The notes below the pieces were generated by a model that was not told where the DNA came from, ran no database searches, and was given only the letters and a program-made list of their open reading frames with translations. A stretch of 64,000 bases of DNA. It comes from Blastocatellia bacterium (GTDB taxonomy: Bacteria > Acidobacteriota > Blastocatellia > UBA7656). This document shows positions 27,545 to 37,590 of the stretch, in pieces. How positions within the stretch are numbered: position 1 is the first letter of the stretch; each line of letters starts with the position of its first letter. The translations under genes were made by a program, and so were the position numbers. The DNA lies in NCBI GenBank assembly GCA_963765495.1, contig CAVXWP010000007.1, forward strand, positions 160,001-224,000, in the 5' to 3' direction.

Positions 27545-29395
27545 ATGACGTTATCTGAAAAACTCGCCAACCTGCCGACCGAGCCCGGCTGCTATATCTA
27601 TCGCGATGAGCGGGAGAAGATTCTCTATGTCGGCAAGGCGAAGAATCTCCGCAATCGCGTGCGGCAGTACTTTCAGTCCTATCGCTCGCACGATGCCAAA
27701 ACGAATGAACTGGTATCGCGCATAAACGATGTGGAGTTGATAGTCACCGACAACGAGATAGAGGCCCTTGCGCTTGAATGCAACCTGATAAAGAAGCACA
27801 AGCCCCCCTTTAACGTCCTGCTCAAAGACGATAAGCAATACCCGCACATCAAGATCACAAATGAGGGTGCGCCTCGCGCCGTCATCGCTCGAAAGATCGT
27901 AAAGGACGGCTCGCGTTACTACGGCCCTTTTCTGCCGCCTTCGCTCGCGTGGCAGACGCTCGATTTGATCAACAAATATTTTCAGCTCCGCACCTGTACG
28001 ATGGAGATAGACGGGCGCGCCGACCGGCCCTGCCTCGAATATCACATAAAGCGATGTCTCGGCCCGTGCGTCAAGGAGCTTTGCTCGATGGAGCATTACC
28101 TTGAGGCCGTTCGCGATGTCGAGCTTCTGCTTGAAGGCAAGACGGCTGACCTCGAAGTGGCGCTGAAAGATCGAATGCAACAGGCTTCTGATGAACTCCG
28201 ATTCGAAGCGGCGGCCCGCTACCGCGATCAGCTAAAGACCATCAGCCGGCTGGGCGAGCAGCAAAAAATGATGTCGGTTTCAGGCGAAGACATAGACATT
28301 TTCGGGTACTACCGCGAGGGCTTTCAACTGGCGCTTGCGCTCTTTACGATGCGCGATGGCAAGGTGGTCGGCAAGCGCGAGTTCTACTGGGAAGATATAA
28401 CCGACCCGTTCGACCCGGGCGCATTCATAGGGCAGGCGCTCAAGCAGTATTACACGACCGGAGATTACGCGCCGGGCGAGGTCCACGTCCCCGTAGATTT
28501 CGAAGACAGAGAGTTGCTGGAAGAGTATCTTTCCGAGCAGCGCGGTCGCCGGGTTCACATCACCTCGCCGCAGCGCGGAGTAAAACGCGATCTGATAGAC
28601 CTGGTGGAAAAAAATGCCCGCCTCAATTTCGATCAGCGATTCCGCGTTCAGCGACCCGATATGCAGAAGGTCTTGCAGGAGCTACAGGAGGCGCTCGAAT
28701 TGCCCGAACTGCCCGACCGCATAGAGTCGTTCGACATCTCGAACATTCAGGGAGACGAGAACGTCGCCTCGATGGTGGTCTGCGAACACGGCGAGATGAA
28801 AAAGAGCGACTATCGCAAATTCAAAGTGCGCTCGGTCGAAGGACGCGCCGACGATTTTCAGTCGATGTATGAAGTCGTGGGGCGGAGGTATTCCAGGTTG
28901 CTCCGCGAAGACAGACCGCTGCCGAGTCTCGTGTTGATCGACGGCGGCAAGGGGCAGCTTGCGGCTGCGGCCCGCGCACTGCACGAACTCGGGCTTGAAG
29001 CCCTGCCCACGGCCTCGATTGCCAAGCGCGAAGAATTACTATTCATAAAAGGCCGCGCCGAGCCCGTCAGAATAGATCATCATTCGCCCGTGCTTCACCT
29101 GATACAGGTGATCCGCGACGAGACCCACCGCTTCGCCGTCACCTATCACCGCAAACGGCGAGCTATGCGCGATTTCAAATCCGAGCTTACCTCGATTCCC
29201 GGCGTAGGCGAAAAGCTGAAGGCCCGCCTGCTTCGCAATTTCGGCAGCCTCAAGCGTGTCTCGGAAGCAAGCTACGCCGAGTTGAAGCCCTTTGTCGGAG
29301 CGCGTCAGGCCGAGCGCATCATAGAGCATTTTGCCAACCTGCGCGCCCTTGAACTCGAAGCCGCCGAGTCTTCGGCTTCGTATGAAGCGGAATAA
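27545..29395 (+). CDS. uvrC: Excinuclease ABC subunit C
   Basis: GIY-YIG (PGCY..YVGKAKNLRNRV), FEAAARYRD UVR, FDISN, IDGGKGQL, RDETHRFA, HhH. Confidence 0.97.
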   Translation: MTLSEKLANLPTEPGCYIYRDEREKILYVGKAKNLRNRVRQYFQSYRSHDAKTNELVSRINDVELIVTDNEIEALALECNLIKKHKPPFNVLLKDDKQYPHIKITNEGAPRAVIARKIVKDGSRYYGPFLPPSLAWQTLDLINKYFQLRTCTMEIDGRADRPCLEYHIKRCLGPCVKELCSMEHYLEAVRDVELLLEGKTADLEVALKDRMQQASDELRFEAAARYRDQLKTISRLGEQQKMMSVSGEDIDIFGYYREGFQLALALFTMRDGKVVGKREFYWEDITDPFDPGAFIGQALKQYYTTGDYAPGEVHVPVDFEDRELLEEYLSEQRGRRVHITSPQRGVKRDLIDLVEKNARLNFDQRFRVQRPDMQKVLQELQEALELPELPDRIESFDISNIQGDENVASMVVCEHGEMKKSDYRKFKVRSVEGRADDFQSMYEVVGRRYSRLLREDRPLPSLVLIDGGKGQLAAAARALHELGLEALPTASIAKREELLFIKGRAEPVRIDHHSPVLHLIQVIRDETHRFAVTYHRKRRAMRDFKSELTSIPGVGEKLKARLLRNFGSLKRVSEASYAELKPFVGARQAERIIEHFANLRALELEAAESSASYEAE

Positions 29396-29603
29396 ACCGA
29401 AACGCCGCAACGAAAATCCGCCGCATCCGTGTCATCCGTGGGCTGTTTCTTCATACCCCATTTTGAAAATCCTGGCCGATTTGTCTGTGCCGATCCCGTA
29501 CGCTTTGATTTAGAAGGGGCAACACACCAGACGATGCGAGACATCTCAGGGCTGTACCCAGACGAGCCTGTATAAAGGGTATCGAGAAAGAAGAGGAAGC
29601 ATC

Positions 29604-30413
29604 ATGAAGAGAAACCTTATCAATTCTTTTATAGCACTGGCGATGCTGGTCGCGGCCGGGTCGCCGCTTTCACAGTCAACGGCTCTAGCGCAGACAAAAC
29701 GGTCTACGAGCCGCAAACCCGTATTACATCGGAAGGCGGCCCCGGCAAAGACTCGCGCGGTGCAACATGCCAAAGTTGACCCTTCGCCCGCCCGTGGCGG
29801 GATCAATGCCGAGGTAATCGGGCCGGTCTTTGTTACCTACACCTTGCCGCAAAACGAATATTTCAGACTGAGAATGAACCAGAATATCAGTTCCGCCACG
29901 GCTCGAACGGGCGACCGTTTCAAGGCGACCGTGACCATCCCTGTTTACGCAAGCGGAGTTGAGGTAGTACCGGCAGGCTCTATAGTCGAAGGGCGCGTAA
30001 CATCGGTCCAGCCCGCTCGCACGCGTGGCCGCGAAGGGCAGATAGCCGTGGCGTTTGACGCTCTCACACTCCCCGATGGGACGAGGCGCAGCATCGAAGG
30101 CGAGTTGACCGAGTTACAGGATAAGAACGCGGGCGAGGTCGAAGGCGAAAACGAGGTGAGCGGGCGTTCGTCCGATACGCGCAAGATCGTCTACATAGGC
30201 GGCGGCGGCGCGGGCGGCGCAATTCTGGGCGGCGCAATAGGAGGCGCGAAGGGCGCAGCCATAGGCGCGATCCTCGGTGCAGGTGCGGGTGTTGCGGGGA
30301 CGATTTTGACAAAGGGCAACGAGGCCGAGCTTAGAAGCGGCACAGAAATCGGAATGACGACTACGAAAACCATAGTCTTTTCCGTCCGCTCGGATCGCTT
30401 CGACCGGCGATGA
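29604..30413 (+). CDS. Secreted TrbI/VirB10-like beta-domain protein with glycine zipper
   Basis: Signal peptide; PAGSIVEGRVT; GGAILGGAIGGAKGAAIGA. Confidence 0.7.
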   Translation: MKRNLINSFIALAMLVAAGSPLSQSTALAQTKRSTSRKPVLHRKAAPAKTRAVQHAKVDPSPARGGINAEVIGPVFVTYTLPQNEYFRLRMNQNISSATARTGDRFKATVTIPVYASGVEVVPAGSIVEGRVTSVQPARTRGREGQIAVAFDALTLPDGTRRSIEGELTELQDKNAGEVEGENEVSGRSSDTRKIVYIGGGGAGGAILGGAIGGAKGAAIGAILGAGAGVAGTILTKGNEAELRSGTEIGMTTTKTIVFSVRSDRFDRR

Positions 30414-30446
30414 AATACCGGCAGTGATTTGCAAGAAAACCCGTTT

Positions 30447-30489
30447 TTTAGACAGGATTGACAGGATTATCCCGTTGATCCTGTCTAAA
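30447..30489. repeat. Inverted nonamer hairpin (GACAGGATT family); probable terminator
   Basis: TTTAGACAGGATTGACAGGAT..ATCCCGTTGATCCTGTCTAAA. Confidence 0.8.
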
Positions 30490-30580
30490 TCTTTTCATGG
30501 ATCAGGCATCACTAAATACCTGAAAAAATTCTTTCCAGAGGGGCAACGTAAACGGGGGGGGCAATGTATCTAACCTAAGA

Positions 30581-30650
30581 ACAGCGACCCGATAGTTAAT
30601 AACGCTGGTAGAATCATCCTTTCGAGGCAGTCCGACACTCGGGTCGCTGT
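30581..30650. ncRNA. Candidate structured small RNA of about 70 nt
   Basis: Perfect 12-bp closing stem ACAGCGACCCGA/TCGGGTCGCTGT with inner CCT-TTCG-AGG hairpin; ECF-like GGCAAC..ATCT motif just upstream. Confidence 0.4.
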
Positions 30651-30652
30651 CT

Positions 30653-31285
30653 CTATATCTCCCTCAACAAGTTCAATCCTCCGGCAATGCGGGTGCGCCT
30701 TCCTTCAATCTTAAAACCTTCACTTAACACCAGAGCGACCGCGCGAGGATAAATCGAGTGTTCCTGTTCGAGAATGCGTGCCGATAATCGCTCGACCGTA
30801 TCGTCATCGAGCACCTCTACGGCCTGCTGCATCACTATGGGGCCGTGGTCGAGTTCTTCATCAACGATGTGGACGGTGCAACCCGTGATCTTGACCCCGT
30901 GTTCCAGCGCCTGGCGCTGCGCATCGAGGCCGGGAAAGGCCGGAAGCAGCGAAGGGTGAATGTTTAGAATACGACCATCGAACTCGCGGATCATCGCCCC
31001 GCTCACAAGCCTCATATATCCGGCAAGGCAGACGAGAGTGACGCCGCGCCGCTTCAATTCTGTGACCATCAACTGGTCGTGCTCCTGACGCGTATGCCCT
31101 TTGTGACTGATAAAGAGCGTCTCGATCCCGCGCGCTCGGGCCTTCTTCAAACCTTCGGCGGATTCAATATTGCTTATGACGAGGGCTATCTCCGCGTCGA
31201 GCCGTCCGGCTGCTGCGGCCCCAATCAACGCCAGCATGTTCGATCCCCGCCCAGAGATCAATATCCCGATTTTTTGCTTGTTCAT
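30653..31285 (-). CDS. purN: Phosphoribosylglycinamide formyltransferase
   Basis: ISGRGSN, LAGYMR, NIHPSLLPAFPG, GCTVH..DHGPI. Confidence 0.97.
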   Translation of the reverse strand: MNKQKIGILISGRGSNMLALIGAAAAGRLDAEIALVISNIESAEGLKKARARGIETLFISHKGHTRQEHDQLMVTELKRRGVTLVCLAGYMRLVSGAMIREFDGRILNIHPSLLPAFPGLDAQRQALEHGVKITGCTVHIVDEELDHGPIVMQQAVEVLDDDTVERLSARILEQEHSIYPRAVALVLSEGFKIEGRRTRIAGGLNLLREI

Positions 31286-31330
31286 ACGGCGCGGAAAATA
31301 CCTCATTGCCGACATGTCGCGCAAGCCCTC

Positions 31331-31447
31331 TGAGGGATGAGGGATGAAAAGGACTGTCGGGGAACTCTTCGGTAATTGGTTAAATCAATTAATCGGAATT
31401 TACCCTTGGATTCTTTTTCATCCCTCATCCCTCATCCCTCATCCCTC
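31331..31447. mobile_element. Empty (non-coding) GGGATGA inverted-heptamer element
   Basis: GGGATGAGGGATGAAAAGGA, about 57 nt AT-rich core, then ATTCTTTT(TCATCCC)x4; same ends as 33583..34034. Confidence 0.75.
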
Positions 31448-31491
31448 CTATGTTGCTTCCGGCCCCTAAAACAAGTATCTTTATCTCCGCG

Positions 31492-33585
31492 ATGGAGTCC
31501 GACCAGATTTTCCCAGATGACAAACCTGATATCTCATCCGAGGAGATCGGTGAGCCGGAAGTGCTCGTCCGCAGTTCGGATGAAGATATAGCGATTTTCG
31601 ATTCGCAGCGTATAGTCGAAGCGCTCGTGCGCGAGGCCAACATAGATGCCGATCTGGCCGCGCAGATCGGGCTCGAAGTGCGCGAGTTTATTCAAAAGCT
31701 CGGATTCCGCACCCTCAGTTCTTCGCTCATACGCGGGCTGGTAGACGCAAAGCTCCTTGAGCTTGGTCTTGAGGACGCGCACAGGTCGCACACCCGGCTG
31801 GGCGTTCCCTTTTATGATGTAGATCGCATAATTCACAATTCGTTTCGCGAATCGATCTCGCAGTCCTACGGGCCGGAGGGCACTAGCCTGATGCTGGCCG
31901 AGTCCATCAAACGCGAGTACGCCATCTTAAGCGTCTTCTCCGAACAGATTGCAAACGCTCACCTTGTAGGCGACATACACATACACGGTATTGGGGCCGT
32001 AGACCGCCCGCACTCGTTGATCTCGGCCGTCGATTATGTCAAGCAGTTCGGCATCACGCTGCCTCAGGGGTTCGCAAGCTCGCGGCCTGCCCGCCGGGCC
32101 GAAGTGCTGGTCGCGCATCTTGTAAAGCTGTCGGCCGCGCTGCAAGGCTATCTGGCAGGCCCGGTCATCTGGGACTCGCTCAATTTCGCGCTTGCGCCTT
32201 ATCTGGTCGATCTGGAAGACCGCGATATAAAGCAACTGGCGCAAACGCTTGTCTTCGAGTTTTCCGCCCCGGCCGTGGCGCGAGGCGGGCAGACCGTTTT
32301 TGCGGACCTGCACCTTGATTGGGATGCGCCGTCTTATATGAAATCGCGCCCGCTGATAGGCGCGGGCGGCCTGCCTATGAACGAGACCTACGGCGATTTT
32401 ACAAGCGAAGCCCATCGCTTTCTGCAAGCCCTGCTTGAAGTCTACATCGAGGGCGACGGACAGGGCCGCTCGTTTTTGACCCCCCGCCTGGTGCTTCACA
32501 TAAATCCTCACTTCAACGAAATTGCAGGCTATCGCGCGGTCCTCGAACTGGCCAGCCGTCTTGCGGTTGAGCGCGGCGGGCTCTCGATAGTCTTTGACCG
32601 TGACGAGGACGCCTTCTTTCGCCGTTACGGCATCAAGGACGACAAGGCGCTTTCGCGTGCCGAAAGCCACGCGTTGCGCTCATCTCAGTTTCAGATCGTA
32701 TCGCTGAATCTGCCGCGCGTCGGATACCTGGCCGGGGGCAATCAGGTAAAGGTCTTTGAGGAGTTGACCCGGCTGATGGAAACGGCCGCGCAGGCCCATC
32801 TGGAAAAGCGAGTCTTTCTTGAGAAACTGCTTGCGCTTGGCGAGCGCGGGCCGTTGTCTGCGCTTACGACCAGAGCGAGCGGCACCCCTTTCCTCAAACT
32901 CAACTGGGCGACCCACGCCATCAGTCTCGTGGGTCTGAACGAGCTTTGCCGCGCCGTGCTTCAATCGGATCTGCACGATTCGCAGGCGACTATGGAGTTT
33001 GCCTTAAAAGTGCTGACGCATTTGAAGCGCGAGGCCGAGCGATTGTCGAACAAACACAAGGTGCGTTTTTTGTTGAGCGGGCAGTCAACCGAAGTGACCT
33101 CGCACAGACTTGCGCGGCTCGATTTGAGATTTTTCGGCGACACGGCAGCAAGCGTGGTCTGCGGCGATGCGGATACGGACGCAGGTTACTACACCGAGGG
33201 AGTGCAGTTGTCGGCTACAAGCGATGTGCCTGTGCTCGACCGCGTTCGCACCGAAGGCGTATTTCACGAGTTTGGATTCATAGACGCAATGACATCCATC
33301 TGGCTCGGAGAGTCGATCCCCTCGGCCGACGATCTGGGTCGATTGATCTCTCAGGCATTTTATCAATCATCCTGTGCGGGTCTGATCTTCTGCCCCGAAT
33401 TCACGATATGCGCGAGTTGCGGCGGGACTACCAGAGGGCTGCATCTTTCCTGCTCTATTTGCGGATCGAATCGGGTTGACGGATTGGCCTATGCCGGAGA
33501 CCGCTACGGACACACTTCATCCTGGGACACGGGGCGGCTGGCCGAATTAAGCGACCGCCGCCGCGTGCGCGGAACAGACATGTGA
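31492..33585 (+). CDS. Anaerobic ribonucleotide reductase NrdD-like protein (ATP cone + C-terminal Zn ribbon), apparently lacking catalytic residues
   Basis: ATP cone (FDSQRIVEALVRE..IRGLVDAKL), AHLVGDIHIH, SLNLPR, GLNEL, RLARLD, CASC..CSICGS, WDTGRLAELSDR. No RxxGY glycyl motif and no finger-loop Cys. Confidence 0.85.
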   Translation: MESDQIFPDDKPDISSEEIGEPEVLVRSSDEDIAIFDSQRIVEALVREANIDADLAAQIGLEVREFIQKLGFRTLSSSLIRGLVDAKLLELGLEDAHRSHTRLGVPFYDVDRIIHNSFRESISQSYGPEGTSLMLAESIKREYAILSVFSEQIANAHLVGDIHIHGIGAVDRPHSLISAVDYVKQFGITLPQGFASSRPARRAEVLVAHLVKLSAALQGYLAGPVIWDSLNFALAPYLVDLEDRDIKQLAQTLVFEFSAPAVARGGQTVFADLHLDWDAPSYMKSRPLIGAGGLPMNETYGDFTSEAHRFLQALLEVYIEGDGQGRSFLTPRLVLHINPHFNEIAGYRAVLELASRLAVERGGLSIVFDRDEDAFFRRYGIKDDKALSRAESHALRSSQFQIVSLNLPRVGYLAGGNQVKVFEELTRLMETAAQAHLEKRVFLEKLLALGERGPLSALTTRASGTPFLKLNWATHAISLVGLNELCRAVLQSDLHDSQATMEFALKVLTHLKREAERLSNKHKVRFLLSGQSTEVTSHRLARLDLRFFGDTAASVVCGDADTDAGYYTEGVQLSATSDVPVLDRVRTEGVFHEFGFIDAMTSIWLGESIPSADDLGRLISQAFYQSSCAGLIFCPEFTICASCGGTTRGLHLSCSICGSNRVDGLAYAGDRYGHTSSWDTGRLAELSDRRRVRGTDM

Positions 33586-34034
33586 AGGGATGAGGGATGA
33601 AAAGGAAAAACTGGAAAACGCGCCGGTAAAGAAACAAGACTTACGCGAAAGAACAAAGCAGTATGCACTTCGAATACTCCGGCTTTATGCGGCCTTGCCC
33701 AAAAGCACCGAAGCGCAGGTTCTTGGAAAACAAATACTGAGGTCTGGGACATCCGTAGGCGCGCAATATCGCGAAGCCTGTCGCGCAAAATCCAATCTGG
33801 ACTTCATCAGCAAGATGGAAGGCGCTCTACAGGAATTGGAGGAAACCTGTTATTGGCTTGAACTATTAAGTGAAGCCGAGATAGTTTCAAAGGAACGGTT
33901 GAATTCGCTATACGGCGAAACTGAGGAGTTAATTTCGATGTTTGTGACAATGGTAAGAAACGTCAAAGACAAACAAAAATAGGAGGTTTGACGGATAATT
34001 CTTTTTCATCCCTCATCCCTCATCCCTCATCCCT
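33583..34034 (+). mobile_element. Coding GGGATGA inverted-heptamer element carrying a four-helix-bundle gene
   Basis: Left arm TGAAGGGATGAGGGATGAAAAGGA; right arm ATTCTTTT(TCATCCC)x4; AT-richer interior. Confidence 0.75.
33590..33982 (+). CDS. Four-helix-bundle protein (TIGR02436 / 23S rRNA IVS protein family)
   Basis: DLRERTKQYALRI..QILRSGTSVGAQYREACRAKS..DFISK..ELEETCYWLELL. Confidence 0.92.
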   Translation: MRDEKEKLENAPVKKQDLRERTKQYALRILRLYAALPKSTEAQVLGKQILRSGTSVGAQYREACRAKSNLDFISKMEGALQELEETCYWLELLSEAEIVSKERLNSLYGETEELISMFVTMVRNVKDKQK

Positions 34035-34040
34035 TAGATT

Positions 34041-34565
34041 ATGCCTGATGGACGCACACACGATCTGATCACGATTCTTCTTGCCGCGCCGACGGCGGCT
34101 GTCACCTATCAGATTACAAATGACTGGACGATGACTGCGATCACGACCGGAGGGATGGTATTCGGCGGGTTGATGTTTGGGCCCGATCTCGATATTCAAA
34201 GCCGCCAGTACACGCGCTGGGGACCGCTCAGGTTTTTGTGGTGGCCTTATAAGGTAGTACTGCCGCATCGCTCGCGCTTCTCTCACGGCATAGTCTTTGG
34301 CACGCTCGTTCGAGTCATATACTTCGTCATCATCTGCGCCCTGACGCTCGCCGTGGCGCTCTATGCACGCGATATGTATCTCTACCGGGCGAAGTGGGGG
34401 TTCGGCGAATTTACCGACGCGTTTGCGCGCGTATGGGAAATCCTGACGCCGATCAGACGCAGTTATCTGCTGGCGGCCTTTATCGGATTGTGGATAGGCG
34501 CAACCAGCCACACGGTAACGGATGTCCTTGGGTCTTTCTTTAAGAGCGTGCGAAAATCTATCTGA
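34041..34565 (+). CDS. DUF2227-like membrane metal-binding protein
   Basis: MPDGRTHD, PDLD, RWG..WWPY..HRS..SHG, SH..D. Confidence 0.8.
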   Translation: MPDGRTHDLITILLAAPTAAVTYQITNDWTMTAITTGGMVFGGLMFGPDLDIQSRQYTRWGPLRFLWWPYKVVLPHRSRFSHGIVFGTLVRVIYFVIICALTLAVALYARDMYLYRAKWGFGEFTDAFARVWEILTPIRRSYLLAAFIGLWIGATSHTVTDVLGSFFKSVRKSI

Positions 34566-34573
34566 AGGGGAAG

Positions 34574-35269
34574 ATGGAGTTGAGCGAAAGCGGCGGTTTC
34601 AAGCGACTTGAATTCGAGCGCCTCGAACCACACGACCAGATGGATCGAGCCAGAAGGTTTCTGGACTTGATGCGCAGACGACGGAGCGTGCGCGCTTTTG
34701 CCCCGGACCCGGTTCCATTCGAACTGATACGGCTGGCGATAGAGACAGCCGGAAGCGCCCCTTCGGGTGCGAACCAGCAGCCGTGGCAGTTTGTCGTGGT
34801 GAGCGATGCGAAACTCAAACACAAGATCAGACTCGCCGCCGAAGAGGAAGAGCGCATAAATTACGAGCGTCGCTTTCCCGATGAATGGAAATCGGCGCTT
34901 GCGCCGCTGGGCACCGACTGGCACAAAGAGTTCCTCGACATAGCCCCGTATCTTATCGTCGTCTTTAAGATCGATTACGGAGTCGTGCCCTCGCCTGTGG
35001 ATGACGGCACGCTCGTGCATGCGAAACACTATTATGTAAATGAATCGGTGGGAATCGCCTCCGGGCTGTTGCTTGCGGCGCTTCACAACGCGGGGCTTGC
35101 TACGCTCACGCACACGCCAAGCCCTATGGGATTTCTCGCAGAGATACTCGGACGACCTAAGAACGAAAAGCCTTATTTGCTTATCCCTGTGGGATACCCC
35201 GAAGTAGACGCGCTTGTGCCTGACATTACAAAAAAGGGGCTCGATGAAATCATGACCCTGTTCGATTGA
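34574..35269 (+). CDS. Iodotyrosine deiodinase-type flavoprotein (nitroreductase superfamily)
   Basis: RRSVR, APSGANQQPW, lid AEEEE..NY, LGTDWHK, YYVNESVGI, TLTHTP. Confidence 0.85.
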   Translation: MELSESGGFKRLEFERLEPHDQMDRARRFLDLMRRRRSVRAFAPDPVPFELIRLAIETAGSAPSGANQQPWQFVVVSDAKLKHKIRLAAEEEERINYERRFPDEWKSALAPLGTDWHKEFLDIAPYLIVVFKIDYGVVPSPVDDGTLVHAKHYYVNESVGIASGLLLAALHNAGLATLTHTPSPMGFLAEILGRPKNEKPYLLIPVGYPEVDALVPDITKKGLDEIMTLFD

Positions 35270-35292
35270 TGATGGAAGCGAGGTGATCACAG

Positions 35293-35844
35293 ATGGCCTG
35301 GATAAAAATCATCGAAGAAGACGAAGCCGACCCTGAGCTTAAACAGATGTACGACCGTATGCGAAATCCTCGCAGCCCCGTAGACAACATACTCAAGATA
35401 CACAGCCTGAACCCGCGCGGATTACGCGCCCATTTCGATTTTTATAAGACCGTCATGTACGCGCCGTCCGCGCTTTCCCGCATCGAACGCGAAGCGATAG
35501 CCGTGGTCGTCTCAAGCATCAACCGCTGTCATTACTGAGTGATCCATCACGCGGAGGGGCTCCGCCGACTCACGAGAGACGAGAAACTGGTCGAACAACT
35601 CAAAACCGATTATCGGAGCGCCTCGCTTGAGCCCCGATTGCGTGCGATGCTCGATTATGCAAGGAAGCTGACGCTCACGCCTCACGAAATGGAGCAATCC
35701 GATATAGACCCTTTGCGCGGTGCCGGGTTGTCGGACGCAGCCGTACTCGACCTCAATATGGTGGTCGGATATTTCGCCTTCGTAAATCGCCTGGCCGACG
35801 GCCTCGGCGTAGAGCTTGAGGCCAGATGGGGAGAGGAAGGGTGA
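35293..35844 (+). CDS. AhpD/CMD-like peroxidase-related selenoprotein (183 aa; in-frame TGA 35536-38 read as Sec)
   Basis: Two ORF-track halves share one frame and join as REAIAVVVSSINRCHY-U-VIHH (CxxU); C-terminal FAFVNRLADGLGV. Confidence 0.85.
35536..35572 (+). promoter_or_regulatory. Putative bacterial SECIS hairpin
   Basis: GCGGAG-GGG-CTCCGC stem-loop 12 nt after TGA; TGAGT can also pair with ACTCA at 35568-72. Confidence 0.65.
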
Positions 35845-35874
35845 TTTAAGATTTAAGATTTCCTGTATTAGAGT

Positions 35875-37590
35875 TCAGGGCCGGGCAGTCTCCAAAAACG
35901 CTTTGAGCTTGCGGGAGCGCGACGGGTGGCGCAGTTTTCTGAGCGCCTTCGCCTCGATCTGGCGAATGCGCTCGCGCGTGACGGCAAAGTGCTGACCCAC
36001 TTCTTCGAGCGTGTGCTCGCTGCCGTTCGGGCCGAGGCCGAAGCGCATCTTTATGACTTTCTCTTCGCGTGGCGTGAGCGACTTCAGCACTTCGTCGGTG
36101 ATTTCGCGCAGGTTGGAATTTATCACCGCTTCCGAGGGATTTGTAATGGTCTTGTCTTCGATGAAATCGCCGAGATGCGAATCCTCTTCTTCTCCGATGG
36201 GCGTCTCAAGCGAGATCGGTTCCTGCGCGATCTTAAGCACCTTTCGCACCTTCGAGACGGGGATGTCCATCTTCTTTGCGATCTCTTCCGAGCTTGGCTC
36301 CCGGCCAAGCTCCTGGACAAGTGCGCGCGAGGTGCGGATCAACTTGTTGATGGTTTCGATCATGTGGACGGGTATGCGGATGGTGCGCGCCTGATCGGCT
36401 ATGGCCCGAGTTATTGCCTGGCGTATCCACCACGTCGCGTAGGTGGAAAATTTATAGCCTCGCCGCCACTCGAATTTATCGACCGCCTTCATCAATCCGA
36501 TATTCCCTTCCTGGATAAGATCCAGAAATTGCAATCCGCGATTCGTGTACTTCTTGGCTATCGAGACGACAAGCCTCAGGTTTGCTTCTATCAATTCCCG
36601 CTTGGCGATGTCGGCTTCTTCTTCGCCGCTGTTGATCGAGGCAAGCGAGCGTTCGAGTTCGACCGATGTGATGTGCCAGCAATCTTCAAGCTCACCGAGG
36701 CGGCGTTCGGCGTCTCGGAGGTTTCGCTTGAGTTCGCGTTCGTCCTCGTTCCATTTCTTCTTTTCAATCGCGCGCCGGGCCTTCTCGATTGCGGCGCGCG
36801 CCTCGCGCGACTCCCTCACGCATTCGAGTATAAGCTCGGTGAGTCGCTCGTGCTGATGCACGGCGAGGTCGAGCGCCCGCGCCTGCCGACTGACCTCGAC
36901 GCGCGCCCGCGCGAGCTTTCGGCGCAGGCGCGGCAGCTTCGATGATTTGCGTGGTTCGGCCCGCAATTGATCGTGAATTTTGAGCGTTCGCGTATAGCTC
37001 TTTTTTAGTTCTGTGATCGAATCGAGAATAGCAGTCAGGTACTCTTCGAGGCGTTCTTCGACGACGCCTTCCTGCTCGCTGAAGACGACTACTTCGCGTA
37101 TGTGCAATTCGCCCCGGCGCAACCGCTCGCCTATCTTTATCAATTCGTCTATACAGATCGGCGAGCGCGAAATCGCCCTGAGCGCTCGCTTCCGTCCTCG
37201 CTCGATGCGGCGGGCTATCGAGACCTCTCCGTCGCGTGTCAGCAGAGGCACTATCGCCATCTCTCGCAGGTAGAGGCGTACGGGGTCATTAGTCTTATCG
37301 AGCGTGCCGGGTGTGAGATCGAGGTCGAGCCCTTCGGCGAATTCGTCGTCGTCTTTTACGTCTCCGTTTTCGGCCGCCGCCGCCGCCGCCGCAATAAATT
37401 TTTCATCCGTGTCTGAAATCGAGATGCCTTCCGCGCCGATGGCATCGAATATTGCTTCGATGTCGTCGGCCGAATTCATGTCGGGTGGCAACAGCCGATT
37501 GATATCGTCGTAGGTCAGGTACTCCTTCTCTTTGCCGATCTCGAGAAGTTTCTCTACTTCGTTTTGATATTTCTCGTTAAGCTCTGACAC
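35875..37590 (-). CDS. rpoD: RNA polymerase primary sigma factor RpoD
   Basis: Region 1.1, [50 protein letters not shown]; GTG 37590 after GGGAG; follows dnaG. Confidence 0.96.

Follow-up and report, generated by a model that had tools for sequence, protein, structure and literature searches.

A class III ribonucleotide reductase homolog that has lost its radical residues and is kept under strong purifying selection in Blastocatellia

What does a protein do that is built like an anaerobic (class III) ribonucleotide reductase, NrdD, when the residues on which radical chemistry depends are gone? This question is raised by a gene found in a 64,000-nucleotide (nt) stretch of DNA from a soil bacterium of the Blastocatellia, in the Acidobacteriota (assembly GCA_963765495.1, contig CAVXWP010000007.1, positions 160,001 to 224,000 of the forward strand); the whole stretch is called the window below, positions are counted from its first letter, and the product of the gene is referred to as the window protein. 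A preliminary description, prepared from the letters of the DNA, took the gene for a catalytically dead class III reductase, repurposed as a nucleotide sensor, a scaffold or a dominant-negative partner of a true NrdD rather than decaying. The analysis presented here leaves us nearly certain that the window protein is not a reductase, and glycyl-radical ribonucleotide reduction is, as judged from the sequence, impossible for it. Since every residue of the radical chemistry has been lost and the gene is nevertheless strongly conserved, the protein should have some other job.

The gene lies in a single intact open reading frame (ORF) of the window (31450..33585, forward strand, 711 amino acids (aa)), in which an internal ATG at position 31492 gives a product of 697 aa; the N-termini of orthologs begin at this point as M-[ED]-x-[DE]. 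The NRDD model of Pfam (PF13597) matched residues 125-690 (E-value 1e-80, 272.5 bits). The frame of about 700 aa noted previously was indeed intact, with all quoted motifs in their places. The score of the NCBIfam equivalog TIGR02487 (235.8 bits) stayed under its cut-off of 326.35. Apart from these NRDD models, the Pfam and NCBIfam scans of the window protein gave only a sub-threshold Pfam match to the ATP-cone (PF03477, E-value 0.0041, 18.1 bits, below the gathering score of 25.8), and no catalytic motif of any other family. The coding sequence and its main domain are as follows:

31492..33585, forward strand: coding sequence of the radical-less NrdD-like protein, 697 aa plus stop, with a start that agrees with the ortholog N-termini
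31864..33561, forward strand: NRDD alpha/beta-barrel core and C-terminal domain, residues 125-690 (PF13597; hhalign probability 100 against canonical relatives)

The register of the catalytic positions was established with the closest canonical relative, P0122 (BLASTP, 44% identity over 680 residues, 5 gaps), with a profile-profile alignment (18 orthologs, 16 canonical relatives), and with characterized NrdD proteins of T. maritima (Tm), P. copri (Pc) and S. thermophilus (St), whose residue numbers are given with these prefixes. The roles of residues in NrdD follow the available text of PMC11226230 (PcNrdD) and PMC4493059 (T. maritima NrdD). Three stretches of the window protein stand where the radical residues should be:

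32002..32016, forward strand: DRPHS, residues 171-175, with Ser175 in place of the conserved beta-strand Cys
32593..32643, forward strand: remnant of the finger (Cys) loop, FDRDEDAFFRRYGIKDD, residues 368-384, shortened and Cys-free
33478..33507, forward strand: remnant of the Gly loop, DGLAYAGDRY, residues 663-672, where Asp670 takes the place of the radical Gly and Arg671 that of the conserved Tyr

In three gap-free alignments (profile-profile, BLASTP against P0122 and profile against T. maritima) the radical Gly corresponds to Asp670, as the manual register of the preliminary description had it, the conserved Tyr that follows corresponds to Arg671, and Gly669 stands opposite Thr or Val (VDGITRITGY of P0122 against VDGLAYAGDR of the window protein). 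The P. copri alignments alone run one position out of step, so that Gly669 faces the radical Gly711; this placement is ambiguous, the P. copri chain being longer by one residue between GY and the conserved Trp. Ser175 stands opposite the beta-strand Cys (Tm Cys125, Pc Cys171), DRPYC of P0122 being represented by DRPHS, and the thiyl Cys (St Cys400, a numbering that agrees with the available text of PMC12662201) aligns with Ile381. Where close relatives have a CC pair, a deletion of 3-5 residues is found at Phe376/Arg377 (..SECCRL.. of P0122 against ..FFR---RYG..), and residues 368-390 include no Cys at all. The Ser in place of Cys in RPHS and the Cys-free finger loop had thus been read correctly, and all three catalytic losses were recovered in both sequence and profile alignments.

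These losses are a property of the family and not of a single copy. Among 187 family rows (proteins and loci, overlapping in part), column 175 is occupied by Ser in 126, Thr in 24 and Ala in 21, and never by Cys; column 670 contains D116, N30, G10, Q8, H7, E7, S5 and Y1; and any Cys in columns 368-390 is limited to 6 of the 187 rows, at scattered positions. The Gly one residue earlier, to which the preliminary description had drawn attention, is Gly669, and its column is not conserved as Gly (G124, T38, A18 and 7 others). Close orthologs with canonical motifs, which would have spoken for the mere decay of this copy, were not seen in these rows, in which neither Cys nor Gly is conserved at the catalytic columns.

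A word-indexed search gave 1129 proteins with an E-value of ≤0.001; the top 120 listed were nearly all full-length and 52-100% identical to the window protein, with labels mostly of Blastocatellia or Acidobacteriota; orthologs of 44-46% identity occur in further genomes of the same class. Within 18 orthologs (50-86% identity), 150 columns are invariant, with no conserved Cys or Gly at the catalytic sites. The ratio of nonsynonymous to synonymous divergence (dN/dS, omega), calculated according to Nei and Gojobori, was 0.023 (dS 0.53) and 0.047 (dS 0.51) for the two least diverged pairs and 0.02-0.07 in unsaturated pairs generally; between the window copy and 12 orthologs it was 0.06-0.13, at saturated dS. 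By region, omega did not exceed 0.15 anywhere except in the first 22 residues, the former finger loop included, and it was 0.06-0.15 in the region of the Zn ribbon and Gly loop. Sampling of the class covered 401 genomes, and 144 of them hold the gene (one of these holders, G520, is an unpublished genome). By family, the holders were 82/87 (f2), 13/14 (f4), 5/5 (f90), 8/8 (f92) and 3/3 (f5), 31/52 in f1, to which the window belongs, and 1/9 in f93; in the 220 sampled genomes of family f3 the gene was not found. Together, the family-wide catalytic losses and the strong purifying selection point to a retained, repurposed protein, and the earlier statement that this is not decay is borne out. As a separate observation, six of the listed orthologous matches (G016, G478, G406, G309, G350 and G325) contain a single in-frame stop each, four TGA and two TAA, which could be sequencing errors, recent pseudogenes or recoding.

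The reductase inventory of the host was examined in its whole assembly (7.3 Mb, 17 contigs, 97.94% complete). The window gene is the only NRDD match. No NrdG was detected in the host genome (no match to TIGR02491; the best match to TIGR02495 reached 39 bits against a cut-off of 131), the best radical S-adenosylmethionine (radical-SAM) candidates being SPASM maturases, QueE and MoaA; in the same genome neither a Gly_radical domain (PF01228) nor NrdB was found. The lack of nrdG near the gene, noted before, therefore extends to the whole genome, and no canonical nrdD or nrdG over the cut-off was found elsewhere in it. With a single NRDD match, no NrdG and no Gly_radical protein, the host has no glycyl-radical system and no true NrdD that could be a partner. 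It encodes NrdR and two PF02867 reductases that we take to be class II-like; a TSCPD domain is present in one of these reductases, an ATP-cone in neither.

Most holders in a sample of the phylum likewise had the radical-less copy alone: 11 of the 14 holder genomes had no second NrdD at E ≤1e-20, and the query that gave this result detected canonical NrdDs in 26 other genomes. Coexistence was seen in one genus only, g22, which belongs to another class of the phylum: three of its genomes have a radical-less paralog and a second NrdD match, and in both of the two g22 genomes tested an NrdG over the cut-off adjoins the second copy. In one of these (G042) the radical-less paralog adjoins folD (C9:2529823-2531811) and the canonical nrdD-nrdG pair is located separately (C1:437132-439901), and the arrangement in G007 is alike.

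Not only the radical residues have changed. In 63 canonical rows, 69 columns reach a conservation of ≥0.9; the radical-less clade keeps 42 of these and differs in 27, among them H165, TPAE, N569-S570 of YYTNS, H572, H602, G670 and Y671. Four of the substrate motifs can be located in the window as degenerate or replaced counterparts:

31846..31860, forward strand: remnant of the NxN flap, RESIS, residues 119-123, paired with KENAN of P0122; both Asn are replaced by Ser, and the stretch is variable among orthologs
31978..31989, forward strand: HIHG, residues 163-166, a degenerate HxHD triphosphate-binding motif (alignment with Tm)
33082..33096, forward strand: QSTEV, residues 531-535, in place of the phosphate-binding loop TPAES (P0122 alignment, column conservation)
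33187..33201, forward strand: YYTEG, residues 566-570, in place of the conserved YYTNS (P0122 alignment, column conservation)

According to the available text of PMC11226230, the NxN flap of PcNrdD closes over the substrate, and the phosphate loop comprises Pc residues 577-581 with Glu581. Tm Y112, H114, D115 and R116 align with H163, H165, G166 and I167; in column 165, His makes up 0.98 of the canonical rows, and the commonest residue of the radical-less clade is Gln (0.39). The HxHD, NxN and TPAE columns are all unconserved within this clade.

Other parts of the reductase are clearly recognizable:

31567..31779, forward strand: N-terminal cone-like domain, residues 26-96, a degenerate ATP-cone (PF03477 sub-threshold; omega 0.02-0.06)
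32707..32718, forward strand: NLPR, residues 406-409, a canonical barrel-strand motif that is retained (N406 invariant in a 115-sequence alignment; 1.00 in three groups)
33409..33462, forward strand: four-Cys Zn ribbon, C640, C643, C654 and C657 (invariant in 18/18 orthologs and conserved with canonical relatives)
33526..33564, forward strand: retained C-terminal tail, WDTGRLAELSDRR, residues 679-691 (E685 and R689 conserved with canonical relatives)

The ribbon and the tail, in which SWDTGRLAELSDRRR is present, had been named as kept in the preliminary description, and both are. Its "ATP cone" needs a correction: the N-terminal domain is, on sequence grounds, homologous to the ATP-cone (about 20 more distant orthologs have a precomputed PF03477 match, and the domain is also conserved in P0122), but the match is degenerate and sub-threshold. 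Pc Lys7, Arg8 and Arg11 align with Ser28, Ser29 and Asp32. Also conserved with canonical relatives is the region of the specificity-site hairpin and helix alphaA (residues ~180-215, SRPARR..EVL..H..K), in which Tm P148-H158 aligns with residues 199-209.

The wider kin of the protein were collected in an exhaustive profile-free search, which returned 2081 representatives at E ≤0.001. Its top matches include an NrdD-like family of about 750 aa (P0157, P0160, P0164 and about 120 relatives), mostly from Hydrogenedentes/Hydrogenedentota where labelled. These proteins are 31-38% identical to the window protein, contain two ATP-cones (77-84 bits in the three named) and no catalytic Cys, and stop at about residue 633 of the window protein, i.e., they have neither the Zn ribbon nor the glycyl-radical domain. 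In a FastTree tree of 160 rows, the full Cys/Cys/Gly triad was present in none of the 78 rows outside the canonical clade and in 36 of 82 rows within it (28 further rows of the canonical clade could not be scored owing to inteins or fragments). In quick IQ-TREE trees calculated with the trait columns removed, 40 radical-less rows (12 of the Blastocatellia type, 10 of the Hydrogenedentota type and 18 others, including other Acidobacteriota classes) formed one clade among the CC-type canonical NrdDs (Shimodaira-Hasegawa-like approximate likelihood ratio support, SH-aLRT, of 100), and the canonical NrdDs of Hydrogenedentota were placed elsewhere. Forcing the radical-less family of Hydrogenedentota together with the canonical NrdDs of Hydrogenedentota cost 45.2 log-likelihood units (p of the approximately unbiased (AU) test 0.049), for a grouping that was chosen after the tree had been seen and with radical-less rows on long branches. 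A single origin of the radical-less clade is thus favoured by the trees, and the origin of the Hydrogenedentota family from its own canonical NrdDs is only borderline rejected.

We lean, if only slightly, towards the view that one old branch of class III reductases abandoned radical chemistry and spread across several phyla as a new family with a radical-independent function, be it that of a sensor of nucleotides or metabolites that makes use of the former effector site or that of a new enzyme housed in the barrel; the proposed range of this family, which is part of the same claim, would comprise Blastocatellia, other Acidobacteriota, Hydrogenedentota and lineages labelled Deltaproteobacteria.

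Two candidate observations on the wider kin were dropped. T131, K140, E142, D171, W227, W277 and G589 were taken for derived residues common to the radical-less proteins of Blastocatellia and Hydrogenedentota, an idea that was abandoned because the same residues occur in the closest canonical relatives. Hydrogenedentota proteins of 944-952 aa were considered as fusions of the radical-less form and turned out to be canonical NrdDs. Canonical NrdDs of about 950 aa, at least some of them labelled Hydrogenedentota, also match the ATP-cone in two stretches. Moreover, many canonical relatives (P0125-P0132, P0141, P0166, P0183 and others) are 1000-1700 aa long and match in 2-4 stretches like intein hosts; an intein splicing domain was recognized by Pfam in all three that were scanned (P0125, P0127 and P0128), with a LAGLIDADG match that was clear in P0127 and marginal in P0125, and in several of these relatives the alignment is interrupted directly after DRPY, at the catalytic beta-strand Cys.

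The genomic context of the radical-less genes differs from that of their canonical relatives. In the loci of the latter (n=15), a radical-SAM gene is found downstream in 13 and a thioredoxin-like gene in 11, whereas neither was present within four genes in any of the 76 radical-less loci with a called gene. NrdR-box-like palindromes were found between -300 and +60 in 14/15 canonical loci and 1/60 radical-less loci (at most 3 mismatches to the consensus; inside-gene control 0/15 and 2/60, the canonical loci serving as the positive control), and no such site with at most 3 mismatches was found at 31251-31520 of the window. The absence of radical-SAM and thioredoxin-like neighbours and of NrdR-box-like sites indicates that the clade departed from the ancestral setting of activase, reductant and NrdR, and the window protein functions without NrdD, NrdG or NrdR control. 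The immediate neighbours in the window are:

30653..31324, reverse strand: purN (formyl transferase), divergent upstream neighbour, the same as in 13 related loci
34041..34565, forward strand: DUF2227, downstream neighbour, which immediately follows the gene in orthologous loci; in the window an inserted element lies between the two

Other neighbours are characteristic of other subgroups: besides divergent purN with downstream DUF2227, there are loci in which thiD precedes and carB follows the gene on the same strand, and further subgroups with gltX and H+-PPase, or with polA. At least one of thiD, carB, purN, thiE and folD lies within two genes in 45/76 radical-less loci, which is a weak hint only, because the genomes are related and the genes are housekeeping ones. 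Apparent fused forms of 1112-1165 aa in some orthologous loci were rejected as antisense open frames over divergent metK-/ahcY-like genes (named from N-terminal sequences only). The promoter and terminator scan of 31200-34100 gave nothing above shuffled sequences, and the sequencing runs holding the stretch comprise one soil-metagenome DNA run, with no RNA run listed.

Elsewhere in the host genome, a perfect NrdR-box-like palindrome, ACAATATATTGT, is located upstream of one of the class II-like reductases (L003, G000:C1:745125-749567), at a distance of 325 nt from the first start codon of the open frame (942 aa) in which the TSCPD reductase is encoded; upstream of the second one (L002), no such palindrome was seen with the patterns used.

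How, then, may the protein be explained? In our preferred reading it would descend from a thioredoxin-type class III reductase (the type with CC in the finger loop) and would have kept the ten-stranded barrel, the cone-like domain, the specificity-site helix and hairpin region of the dimer interface, the Zn ribbon and the C-terminal tail. What it no longer has is the radical Gly with the Tyr next to it, the two Cys of the active site, the motifs for phosphate binding and the NxN flap. It would now be a Zn-containing, probably dimeric protein with a predicted ligand, perhaps a nucleotide bound at the former effector site, and with a regulatory or scaffolding role, and the supply of deoxyribonucleotides would be left to the two class II-like reductases. 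The retained barrel, cone-like domain, Zn ribbon with tail and specificity-site stretch fit a dimeric ligand-binding protein. To a binding, regulatory or scaffold mechanism of this kind, in which both the ligand binding and the dimer are predictions from sequence, we give a probability of about 0.5. Several points weigh against it. The cone domain does not have the basic residues that bind the phosphates of (d)ATP in PcNrdD, which disfavours a classical ATP/dATP sensor, and Pc Glu290 and Asn298 of the specificity site lie in a section of the chain that did not align. The neighbours, changing with the subgroup, indicate no single partner, and the loss of NrdR-box-like sites argues against a tight coupling to the reductase regulon. 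Finally, newly fixed polar residues (H274, D276, R332, H475, E514, R517 and H522) would equally fit a new catalytic site.

The last point leads to the main rival reading, which we hold to be possible, though rather doubtful. Here a remodelled barrel, in which the tips of the former Gly and Cys loops bear charged residues, would catalyse a different reaction without radicals; its substrate might be a nucleotide or a metabolite related to one-carbon chemistry. Selection acts along the whole length as on a housekeeping enzyme, including the former finger and Gly loops (omega 0.06-0.15); D181, H274, D276, R332, R361, H475, E514, R517 and H522 are fixed in the clade and do not occur in canonical relatives, and R378 and G380 of the finger loop are also fixed; and thiD, carB, purN, thiE or folD neighbours are found in 45/76 loci. 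However, no catalytic motif of a known family was recognized in Pfam or NCBIfam, those neighbours are subgroup-dependent housekeeping genes in loci of related genomes, which are not independent, and the related Hydrogenedentota family has no C-terminal domain, so that an active site common to both could not use the former Gly loop. That the window protein is instead a non-catalytic partner or dominant-negative subunit of a true NrdD, as had also been proposed, appears very improbable: class III reductases are dimers (available text of PMC11226230 and PMC4493059), and g22 genomes do have both the radical-less paralog and, elsewhere, a canonical nrdD-nrdG pair (2/2 tested), yet the idea fails in this host, with its single NRDD match and without NrdG, and 11/14 holder genomes of the phylum sample have no second NrdD to be paired with.

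Still less credit can be given to a reductase working by an unconventional radical path, e.g., with Gly669 and an unrecognized activase, which we consider extremely improbable. Gly669 does adjoin the canonical position and is paired with the radical Gly in the P. copri alignment, and the T. maritima enzyme works even though no Cys is pre-positioned in its crystal form (available text of PMC4493059); the T. maritima sequence, however, has both the finger-loop and the beta-strand Cys, while the window protein has neither, Gly669 is unconserved (G124, T38, A18 and 7 others of 187 rows), the host genome encodes no activase and no other glycyl-radical protein, and the NxN flap, HxHD and TPAE are lost as well. 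A decaying pseudogene whose frame happens to be open still would account for the single in-frame stops in six orthologous matches, but dN/dS values of 0.02-0.07, the 150 invariant columns in 18 orthologs of 50-86% identity and intact frames in nearly all 144 holder genomes refute this explanation, the likelihood of which we put close to nil.

The surroundings of the gene in the window contain two further features. A 22-23 nt inverted repeat of GAGGGAT heptamers (TGAGGGATGAGGGATGAAAAGGA) occurs as two pairs, at 31331-31447 and 33585-34035. The first pair, which directly precedes the NrdD-like gene, encloses 58 nt of spacer; the second flanks a 391-nt segment with an ORF (33590-33982) of PF05635, "23S rRNA-intervening sequence protein", and orthologous loci have no such ORF between DUF2227 and the NrdD-like gene. 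The pattern is matched 8 times across the window, where 0 matches would be expected, and the two pairs look like a small mobile cassette and its empty copy, as far as the sequence can tell. The only Rfam match in 29000-36000, a sub-threshold one of mir-H1 to the hairpin of the inverted repeat (30.2 bits against 97), was taken as chance. Further downstream, at 35293-35847 (forward strand), two adjacent ORFs would join, on readthrough of an in-frame TGA (35536-35538), into a peroxidase-related protein of 183 aa (AhpD/CMD-type), with TIGR01926 matching across the TGA (169 bits, cut-off 81.8). The TGA is the second position of a C-H-Y-x redox motif, selA is present in the host genome (566 bits), and the TGA is followed by a 6-bp GC stem, in a fold no better than shuffled sequences (z 0.14); the protein is a candidate selenoprotein by these signs.

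In the literature, the radical-less family appears to be represented by a one-line table entry, "NrdD-like paralog (no NrdG)", which in the available text of that source is accompanied by no residue analysis, family definition or function and which probably denotes the same family as the window protein; it is the only such mention in the published text at hand, and supplements might hold more. The available portions of two papers on the evolution of ribonucleotide reductases (PMC9531940 and PMC4390871) do not mention radical-less NrdD homologs. In databases, members of the family are named "anaerobic ribonucleoside-triphosphate reductase", some with "(formate)". As these labels are attached to radical-less proteins, genome-based claims of class III anaerobic synthesis of DNA precursors in Blastocatellia, Chloracidobacterium and Hydrogenedentota would be wrong as far as they concern this family.

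If one old branch did abandon radical chemistry in the way proposed above, this would be the first bacterial family of pseudo-reductases. For enzymologists the protein is a natural experiment in which a ten-stranded radical barrel stays under strong selection after all of its radical residues have gone, the glycyl-radical domain being kept in one lineage and deleted in another. Once its ligand is identified, a novel kind of nucleotide-linked regulation might come to light, or a novel activity of the fold shared by ribonucleotide reductase and pyruvate formate-lyase.

Compared with the canonical CC-type class III NrdD, represented by the cluster of P0122 (with labels such as Methylomirabilia and Methanoperedens, and with loci L097-L111 of Thermodesulfobacteriota and Nitrospirota), the window protein shares the cone-like domain, the barrel, the NLPR strand, the Zn ribbon and the C-terminal tail. 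Its sequence shows none of the motifs DRPYC, ..ECCRL.., ENAN, TPAES, YYTNS and RITGY of the canonical proteins, and its locus none of their thioredoxin-like and radical-SAM neighbours or NrdR-box-like sites. The Hydrogenedentota family of about 750 aa belongs to the same radical-less clade, but differs from the window protein in having two bona fide ATP-cones and no C-terminal domain. Some likeness is also offered by NrdR, which the available text describes as a nucleotide-sensing repressor of reductase genes composed of an ATP-cone and a Zn ribbon: a cone-like domain is combined with a four-Cys Zn ribbon in the window protein as well. NrdR is, however, small (a model of 147 positions) and has no barrel, and it is encoded elsewhere in the host genome. 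A parallel may be drawn, moreover, with catalytically dead homologs of class I reductases. The R1 homologs of betaherpesviruses (UL45/M45) and Rnr4 of yeast belong to another class of ribonucleotide reductase and to other organisms, and Rnr4 partners an active subunit, which is absent here; in these proteins too, nevertheless, the reductase fold was kept, catalytic or cofactor residues were lost, and selection has maintained the protein for another role.

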